Positions 7,238-7,560 of a stretch of DNA of 64,000 nucleotides are shown here, in pieces (position 1 is the stretch's first letter; every line of letters begins with the position of its first letter). The stretch comes from a plasmid. A program made the position numbers and the translations under genes. The notes under the pieces were generated by a model. It saw nothing but the letters and a program-made list of their open reading frames with translations. It did no database searches and was not told the DNA's origin. The stretch is from NCBI RefSeq assembly GCF_056712565.1, contig NZ_JBWXXM010000002.1; one strand, 5' to 3'.

Positions 7238-7560
7238 TTTTTTTAATTATCCGGAACGCCATGCAAATTTATGATTGAGAAGTGAGTCTATGAGTGTCTA
7301 CGCTACATGTCAATCATAATATGATTAATAACTTCAGTGGTTATGGAGTGCGTCAGTGTTTTTTTTAGTGCCTTATAACGTATTGATATTTAAATTAAAA
7401 ATAGAAAAATGAACACCATGAAAAGGATTTATTTTTGTGTTTTTGAAGAAAACTACCAAAATTTCCCTTGTCAGAGAACTTCATCATGATATGATTTTCT
7501 TCGTCAGTTACTAAATATACCTTTGATTGTCTCGGTCATTACCATTTTAAGGAATAAAAC
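7238..7560. promoter_or_regulatory. AT-rich divergent promoter region between accessory operon and terZ, with two ATCAT-N3-ATGAT inverted repeats
   Basis: 323-bp intergenic; 13-bp sites at 7313-7325 (ATCATAATATGAT) and 7483-7495 (ATCATGATATGAT). Confidence 0.4.

Follow-up and report, generated by a model that had tools for sequence, protein, structure and literature searches.

Conserved paired palindromes in the divergent ter promoter region of an IncHI2 plasmid as likely TerW operators

The closest described counterpart of the sites analyzed here is the TerW box of Kravchenko et al. (2021, Front Microbiol 11:621391; PMC7843439), whose supplement lists two TerW operators for plasmid R478. In that study, a 25-bp palindrome stood out as the best-conserved element of the ter regulatory region when E. 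coli was compared with Pectobacterium, two sites were predicted in each divergent Pectobacterium spacer together with a weak third one before terY1, and the palindrome is said to fall in the TerW-protected region of Valkovicova et al. (2011, Biologia 66:565). Passages in two further papers again cite TerW binding to the ter promoter and its regulation by TerW (PMC9448990, PMC12054061). Several known types of regulator use similar operators. Ribbon-helix-helix (RHH) repressors (CopG of pMV158, Arc and Mnt of P22, MetJ and NikR) act at palindromic operators lying over their own promoters, as we propose for TerW; palindromic operators placed on the -10 or -35 elements of divergent genes are typical of MarR/ArsR-type regulators, an arrangement that the two sites described here would share; and Fur and Zur boxes are, like these sites, AT-rich, 7-1-7-like palindromes in metal and stress promoters. 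Inverted repeats in the ter promoter of Proteus were reportedly noted by Toptchieva and co-workers as early as 2003.

The DNA analyzed here, referred to as the window, is a 64-kb stretch (64,000 nucleotides) of an IncHI2 plasmid and is 99.9% identical to relatives such as pSTM6-275. The spacer between its divergent ter transcription units is about 96% identical to that of R478-type plasmids, which makes the window a relative of R478. A sequence-only reading of the window had reported two 13-bp palindromes of the same pattern in this 323-bp spacer, one 76 bp upstream of the accessory operon and the other 66 bp upstream of terZ; the coordinates and both offsets were correct when read back from the sequence. 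The two sites, called O1 and O2, and the features around them are as follows:

7238-7560: divergent spacer, 323 bp, from the start codon of the ATP-grasp gene (7237, minus strand) to the ATG of terZ (7561)
7313-7325: core palindrome of O1 (site 1), ATCATAATATGAT, centre at 7319, read from the sequence
7308-7326: conserved block of O1, TGTCAATCATAATATGATT; its 21-bp equivalent spans 7309-7329
7483-7495: core palindrome of O2 (site 2), ATCATGATATGAT, centre at 7489, read from the sequence
About 7477-7498: conserved block of O2, AACTTCATCATGATATGATTTT
21-bp duplex form of the site: GTCAATCATAATATGATTGAC
1005-7237, minus strand: accessory operon, from open reading frames, the annotation of a 99.9% identical plasmid and the Pfam family ATPgrasp_Ter
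7561-8142, plus strand: terZ, first gene of terZABCDEF, from annotation and a Pfam TerD domain (E 1e-46)

O1 and O2 are the sole matches to ATCATNNNATGAT (ATCAT-N3-ATGAT) in the window, where 0.10 would be expected, and two matches were reached in none of 100 shuffles. Within the AT-rich spacer itself, two such matches arose in one of 200,000 dinucleotide shuffles, and in a look-elsewhere test any palindrome of the 5-N3-5 type occurred twice in 109 of 20,000 shuffles. The pairing of the palindromes in the ter spacer is not explained by chance. A search for other copies in the window returned just two matches with two mismatches, at 43559 and 59710, in line with chance (3.7 expected).

The similarity of the two sites extends beyond 13 bp. 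They have TCATCATnATATGATT in common, with 15 of 16 bases identical, and the published TerW core AATCAT-N3-ATGATT is matched with no mismatch at 7312-7326 (AATCATAATATGATT) and with one mismatch at 7482-7496 (CATCATGATATGATT). Thus, the 13-bp core of the sequence-only reading stands, but not as the full extent of the site, which is probably 15-21 bp. Read on the opposite strand, window positions 7305-7329, which contain O1, give exactly the published R478 site 1, TTATTAATCATATTATGATTGACAT, and O2 differs by one base from the published site 2, AGCTTCATCATGATATGATTTTCTT, at about 7477-7501. The TerW box is therefore the same object as O1 and O2, with two copies between terZ and the divergent operon and with terW in the locus (PMC7843439). 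O1 and O2 were already known as predicted TerW operators, and our analysis confirms this rather than discovering it; what it adds is a comparison across about 50 species, the overlap of the sites with predicted promoters, the spacing of the sites, a TerW-less control and an analysis of the TerW domains.

The weak third site described before terY1, on the other hand, has no counterpart in the window: no TerW site was found at 55-519, where the best matrix score was -10.9 for this plasmid type. Weak sites upstream of terY1 were seen just in Pectobacterium and in one Proteus locus; the authors of the earlier study had themselves marked this third site as weak (PMC7843439), so that it does not belong to the core features of the TerW box. 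The terW-terY1 spacer of the window contains, upstream of terY1, an inverted repeat of another kind, ATGTATGA-N6-TCATACAT, at 303-324. Its half-sites, GTATGA and TCATAC, resemble NikR half-sites and also the TerW arms in everted order. This repeat was rejected as a TerW-type site. The corresponding spacers of the other loci that were checked do not contain it.

A promoter scan of the spacer gave one leading candidate for each transcription unit:

7285-7313, minus strand: predicted accessory-operon promoter, with -35 TTGACA (7313-7308), a 17-bp spacer and -10 TAGACT (7290-7285)
7468-7495, plus strand: predicted terZ promoter, with -35 TTGTCA (7468-7473), a 16-bp spacer, TG (7487-7488) and -10 TATGAT (7490-7495)

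Both predicted promoters have 10 of 12 consensus matches, the terZ promoter with an extended -10 TG in addition, and the best sigma-70-like site of each strand overlaps a palindrome. O1 abuts the accessory -35 TTGACA, with which it has one base in common, and O2 extends over the spacer, the TG and the entire -10 of the terZ promoter. Transcription of the accessory operon would start at about 7278, which places the centre of O1 at about -41, and that of terZ at about 7502. The earlier suggestion that the placement fits a common operator for both units is borne out by these predictions, in that each site overlaps the best predicted promoter on the appropriate strand. An AAAA tract at 7458-7461 (about -44 to -41), immediately 5' of the terZ -35, is near-invariant across species and may be a UP-element-like contact or a piece of another site.

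Conservation was examined by a TerW alignment scan with one genome per species, which gave 74 loci, mostly from Enterobacterales, in genera that include Enterobacter, Pectobacterium, Serratia, Pantoea, Proteus, Providencia, Yersinia and Xenorhabdus. The fetched loci with an ATP-grasp gene divergent from terZ numbered 51, including the reference plasmid locus, and removal of identical spacers left 50 distinct ones, with that of the window counted in. O1 is present in 50 of the 50 distinct spacers (48 exact, two with one mismatch), as is O2 (41 exact, eight with one mismatch and one with two); all enterobacterial loci were retrieved via TerW, so that the co-occurrence of TerW and the motif within Enterobacterales holds by construction. 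The motif search proposed in the sequence-only reading thus refutes the possibility that the motif is absent from homologous ter promoters, and it finds both sites at the same positions, with O1 centred 72-88 bp from the ATG of the ATP-grasp gene and O2 centred 71-77 bp from that of terZ in the 50 spacers. The length of the spacer is held at 311-330 bp in the 51 loci even though most of its sequence is unconserved, and most homologous spacers are just 40-50% identical to that of the window. Information per column is 1.85-1.91 bits in the sites versus 0.49 bits in the remaining spacer. Across the 1.44 Mb of loci fetched, exact matches fall in terZ upstream regions, barring one sequence found in two loci of one genome.

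The arms of O1 are invariant in 48-50 of 50 species while its central triplet varies (AAT, ATT, AAC, GTT and others); the central GAT of O2, by contrast, is invariant across species because O2 covers the spacer, TG and -10 of the terZ promoter. The accessory -35 TTGACA is invariant in all 50 species, and AGTCTA, CTTGT and TGATATGAT appear as conserved blocks of the cross-species spacer alignment.

These data also bear on the possibility that the blocks are conserved solely as core promoter elements, with incidental palindromes and no operator. Some of the conservation can be explained in this way: the TG and TATGAT of O2 are the predicted extended -10 and -10, and the TGTCAA on the left flank of O1 is the -35 of the other strand. 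However, the O1 13-mer lies mainly upstream of the -35, where core promoters need no sequence, and yet it is invariant, as is the left arm ATCAT of O2, which lies in the promoter spacer. Moreover, one stretch of 15-16 bases is found twice, each time at a different place relative to the promoter, for which the chance is 1 in 200,000, and the palindrome retained in Shewanella and Aeromonas is longer and perfect. Since the invariance extends to positions outside the hexamers, we reject the explanation by promoter elements alone, which is highly improbable.

Two or three sites upstream of terZ are retained even in loci that have no ATP-grasp gene (Xenorhabdus, Proteus mirabilis and Rouxiella). The Xenorhabdus ter loci (X. 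eapokensis, L052, 5560-5900, and alike in L053-L073) begin with a 394-aa open reading frame in place of the ATP-grasp gene and have three TerW-type sites, two of which are 32 bp apart and adjoin terZ. One locus labelled Chryseobacterium sp. 18061 (CACSKA010000014.1) is R478-like and encodes a TerW 98% identical to that of the window. Such a locus is unexpected under a Bacteroidota label and suggests contamination or mislabelling of the assembly.

More distant loci indicate how far the site extends. A Shewanella plasmid (L076) whose TerW orthologue is 43% identical has the 21-bp palindrome GTCAATCAAATTGTGATTGAC at 10307-10327, the position of site 1, and an Aeromonas plasmid (L077) with a TerW orthologue has the palindrome GTCAATCATATTTTGATTGAC. 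Both plasmids thus show, at the site 1 position, a single near-perfect 21-bp palindrome of the form GTCAATCA-N5-TGATTGAC. This result suggests a full site of about 21 bp, GTCAATCAtA-T-TaTGATTGAC, with the 13-mer as its inner part. In the Aeromonas locus there is also a further copy, half-degenerate and some 160 bp from terZ (the two copies lie at about 2600-2622 and 2330-2350). In neither plasmid was a counterpart of the enterobacterial site 2 observed over the terZ -10.

As a TerW-less control we used a ter locus on the Pseudomonas aeruginosa plasmid pNY11173-DIM, a single locus that differs in gene order and G+C content; its 22.9 kb contained no match with up to one mismatch, and matches with two mismatches were at chance level. 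In this locus, of a kind carried by Pseudomonas megaplasmids, the ter unit is co-linear (ATP-grasp, peptidase, PRTase, phosphatase, StiP, HpcH, HAD, terZABCDE), with neither terW nor a divergent promoter, and an ATP-grasp homologue of this type is carried by about 130 Pseudomonas plasmids. A 1-kb query consisting of the spacer and the adjoining gene ends matched 2,372 plasmid records, and TerW is encoded in 2,369 of them. As judged from these sequence comparisons, the motif tracks TerW: it is present in TerW-containing loci, including distant ones, and absent from the TerW-less Pseudomonas locus.

The sequence-only reading had proposed that TerW or another regulator could bind the sites. TerW is now clearly favored, with the R478 sites listed as TerW operators and the motif absent from a TerW-less locus, and binding instead by OxyR, PhoP, a Fur-family protein or a host factor is disfavored and, in our estimate, unlikely. 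Such regulators do have a history at ter loci: OxyR control has been reported in Yersinia pestis and suggested in Proteus, according to second-hand citations, PhoP boxes and PhoP-dependent expression were described in Pectobacterium (PMC7843439), and AT-rich, 7-1-7-like palindromes superficially resemble Fur and Zur boxes. The fit of the sites to the respective consensus sequences is nevertheless poor. The Fur box GATAATGATAATCATTATC is matched at best at 11 of 19 positions in the spacer and at no more than 10 of 19 when centred on either site, and the Zur box GAAATGTTATAWTATAACATTTC at no more than 13 of 23. The best OxyR match (four ATAG/CTAT elements at 10-bp spacing) has 12 of 20 positions and the best PhoP match (the direct repeat (T/G)GTTTA-N5-(T/G)GTTTA) has 8 of 12, and both lie off the palindromes, at 7504-7540 and 7338, respectively. 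The CRP, FNR, NikR and MetJ consensus sequences gave no convincing match at O1 or O2. At the specificity positions, Fur and Zur boxes have GATAAT/ATTATC or GTTAT/ATAAC where the arms of O1 and O2 have ATCAT/ATGAT, and the invariant C and G of each arm (7315/7323 and 7485/7493) misfit the Fur, Zur, OxyR and PhoP boxes alike. In Klebsiella, Vornhagen et al. found no obvious regulator of ter and no OxyR motif in the ter promoter. Furthermore, the locus moves among plasmids and chromosomes of many genera with its sites unchanged, which favors a regulator that travels with the locus, and the absence of the motif from the TerW-less Pseudomonas locus points in the same direction.

TerW is the sole DNA-binding protein identified in the ter locus. 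Its gene appears to lie at the far end of the accessory operon, which encodes, in order, an ATP-grasp protein, a phosphoribosyltransferase, a hypothetical protein, the StiP cysteine protease, an HpcH aldolase and a DUF4236 protein, with gaps of at most 17 bp in the annotation of a 99.9% identical plasmid:

520-987, minus strand: terW, 155 aa, so named in the 99.9% identical plasmid; candidate operator-binding protein
485-508, minus strand: intrinsic-terminator-like hairpin directly 3' of the terW stop, with a 10-pair stem and a T-rich tail, from a terminator scan

terW begins 17 bp downstream of the DUF4236 gene, and no promoter-like site was found between the two. The hairpin is likely to be the end of the accessory-terW transcript. 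This short gap, the absence of a promoter-like site of its own and the hairpin after its stop codon suggest that terW is probably co-transcribed from the accessory promoter. With terW apparently the last gene of the accessory operon, O1 would also autoregulate terW negatively.

Residues 1-70 of TerW form a winged helix-turn-helix, with matches to HTH_11 and HVO_A0261_N in 16 of 18 orthologues. The AlphaFold model of the protein has a pLDDT of 87.9, and the top Foldseek matches of its N-terminus are MarR, ArsR and Sso10a regulators (the structures include MarR, ZitR, CzrA and Sso10a), although these matches are weak (E about 1e-3 to 1e-2, TM 0.35-0.45). Unlike MarR/ArsR-type proteins, TerW is without the MarR dimerisation helices and has an apparent RHH domain in their place, and none of the MarR/ArsR Pfam models reached threshold. 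This second domain, at residues 103-140 approximately (AVSLSLR...TRSEAVE), resembles RHH proteins, with RHH matches at E about 0.01-0.1; RHH_1 scored 16.1 bits on TerW, which is below the 20.5 cutoff, and matched 7 of the 18 orthologues, with a best E of 3.6e-5. When a C-terminal profile was compared with the PDB, all five of the top matches were RHH proteins, with CopG first and NikR among the leaders (E 0.09-0.8), and the KKAVSLSL strand and the helix-turn (TRSEAV)-helix of TerW align with CopG and NikR in this profile. NCBI names the Shewanella and some Klebsiella orthologues 'ribbon-helix-helix protein, CopG family'. In the monomer model, the RHH region has two helices and is without the strand; in a linked-dimer AlphaFold model, C-terminal confidence was about 50 and no strand formed. 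Full-length TerW gave no match to solved structures by sequence. Taken together, the profiles and models suggest that TerW looks like a protein with a winged helix and an RHH domain, and it differs from the classical RHH repressors in the extra N-terminal winged helix and in its sub-threshold RHH match. NikR half-sites (GTATGA/TCATAC) resemble the arms of the TerW site (TATGAT/ATCATA), although the N16 spacing of NikR sites is not found at O1 or O2.

From these comparisons we consider it likely that O1 and O2 are TerW operators through which both divergent promoters are repressed and terW is autoregulated. TerW, the small DNA-binding protein of the ter locus, would bind as a dimer at each operator. 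Given the position of O1 at the accessory -35 and of O2 over the terZ -10, these dimers would block RNA polymerase at both promoters, and occupancy of O1 would bring about negative autoregulation of terW through the accessory operon. Repression would be relieved by a signal, for which one may guess at tellurite, at oxidative stress or at a compound made by the accessory enzymes. Within each site, we infer only tentatively that the RHH domains might contact the inner ATCATA/TATGAT dyad and the winged helices the outer GTCAA/TTGAC arms.

Because O2 lies over the -10 and O1 at a -35 that is a perfect TTGACA, we infer repression of terZ and of the accessory operon rather than activation. The alternative, that TerW activates the accessory operon from O1 while repressing terZ at O2, or that it activates both, draws on the centre of O1 near -41, which is also the classical position of a class II activator, on the weak accessory -10 (TAGACT) and on one secondary source, a passage of which paraphrases Valkovicova et al. 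(2011) as TerW 'inducing overexpression' of the ter genes. A class II activator would, however, normally replace a -35 as good as the accessory TTGACA, which is perfect and invariant, and the position of O2 on the terZ -10 is that of a repressor. In Pectobacterium, terW was up 6.9-fold while terZABCDE and the divergent operon were down 2-6-fold (PMC7843439), so that terW expression is anti-correlated with both operons; the authors favored direct PhoP control of these changes. On R478, terW guards against the lethality of terZA. These two observations agree with repression, whereas the paraphrase disagrees, and we regard activation by TerW as an improbable alternative.

The spacing of the two operators allows a further, more speculative step. 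Measured between centres, O1 and O2 are 166-171 bp apart in 48 spacers; in two unrelated lineages, Klebsiella grimontii and Pantoea coffeiphila, the distance is 157-158 bp, and no spacer has an intermediate value. These distances fit 16 and 15 helical turns and hint at co-operative looping, a weak indication given that the species are not independent. One could imagine TerW as a two-headed repressor that shuts both promoters by an O1-O2 DNA loop of whole helical turns, opened by a nucleoside-like product of the accessory enzymes under its own control; we put this forward as a conjecture with a small chance of being right.

The spacer is widespread: among 5,426 complete E. coli genomes, 954 contain it, as do about 2,370 plasmids. 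In E. coli it is about 94.7% identical in chromosomal islands, including those of O157:H7 and O145:H28, and about 100% identical in IncHI2 plasmids, and no RefSeq feature is annotated under it in any of the E. coli records listed. With the idea of TerW operators in print since 2011-2021, the value of the present analysis lies in consolidation, not discovery. Our comparisons support the view that the palindrome pair is real and functional and that the two sites serve as a common operator. Pathogens commonly carry the ter locus, which marks hypervirulent Klebsiella and serves for selective plating of Shiga-toxin-producing E. coli, and the conserved operator-promoter map of its divergent spacer provides precise targets for mutagenesis, reporters and inducer searches.
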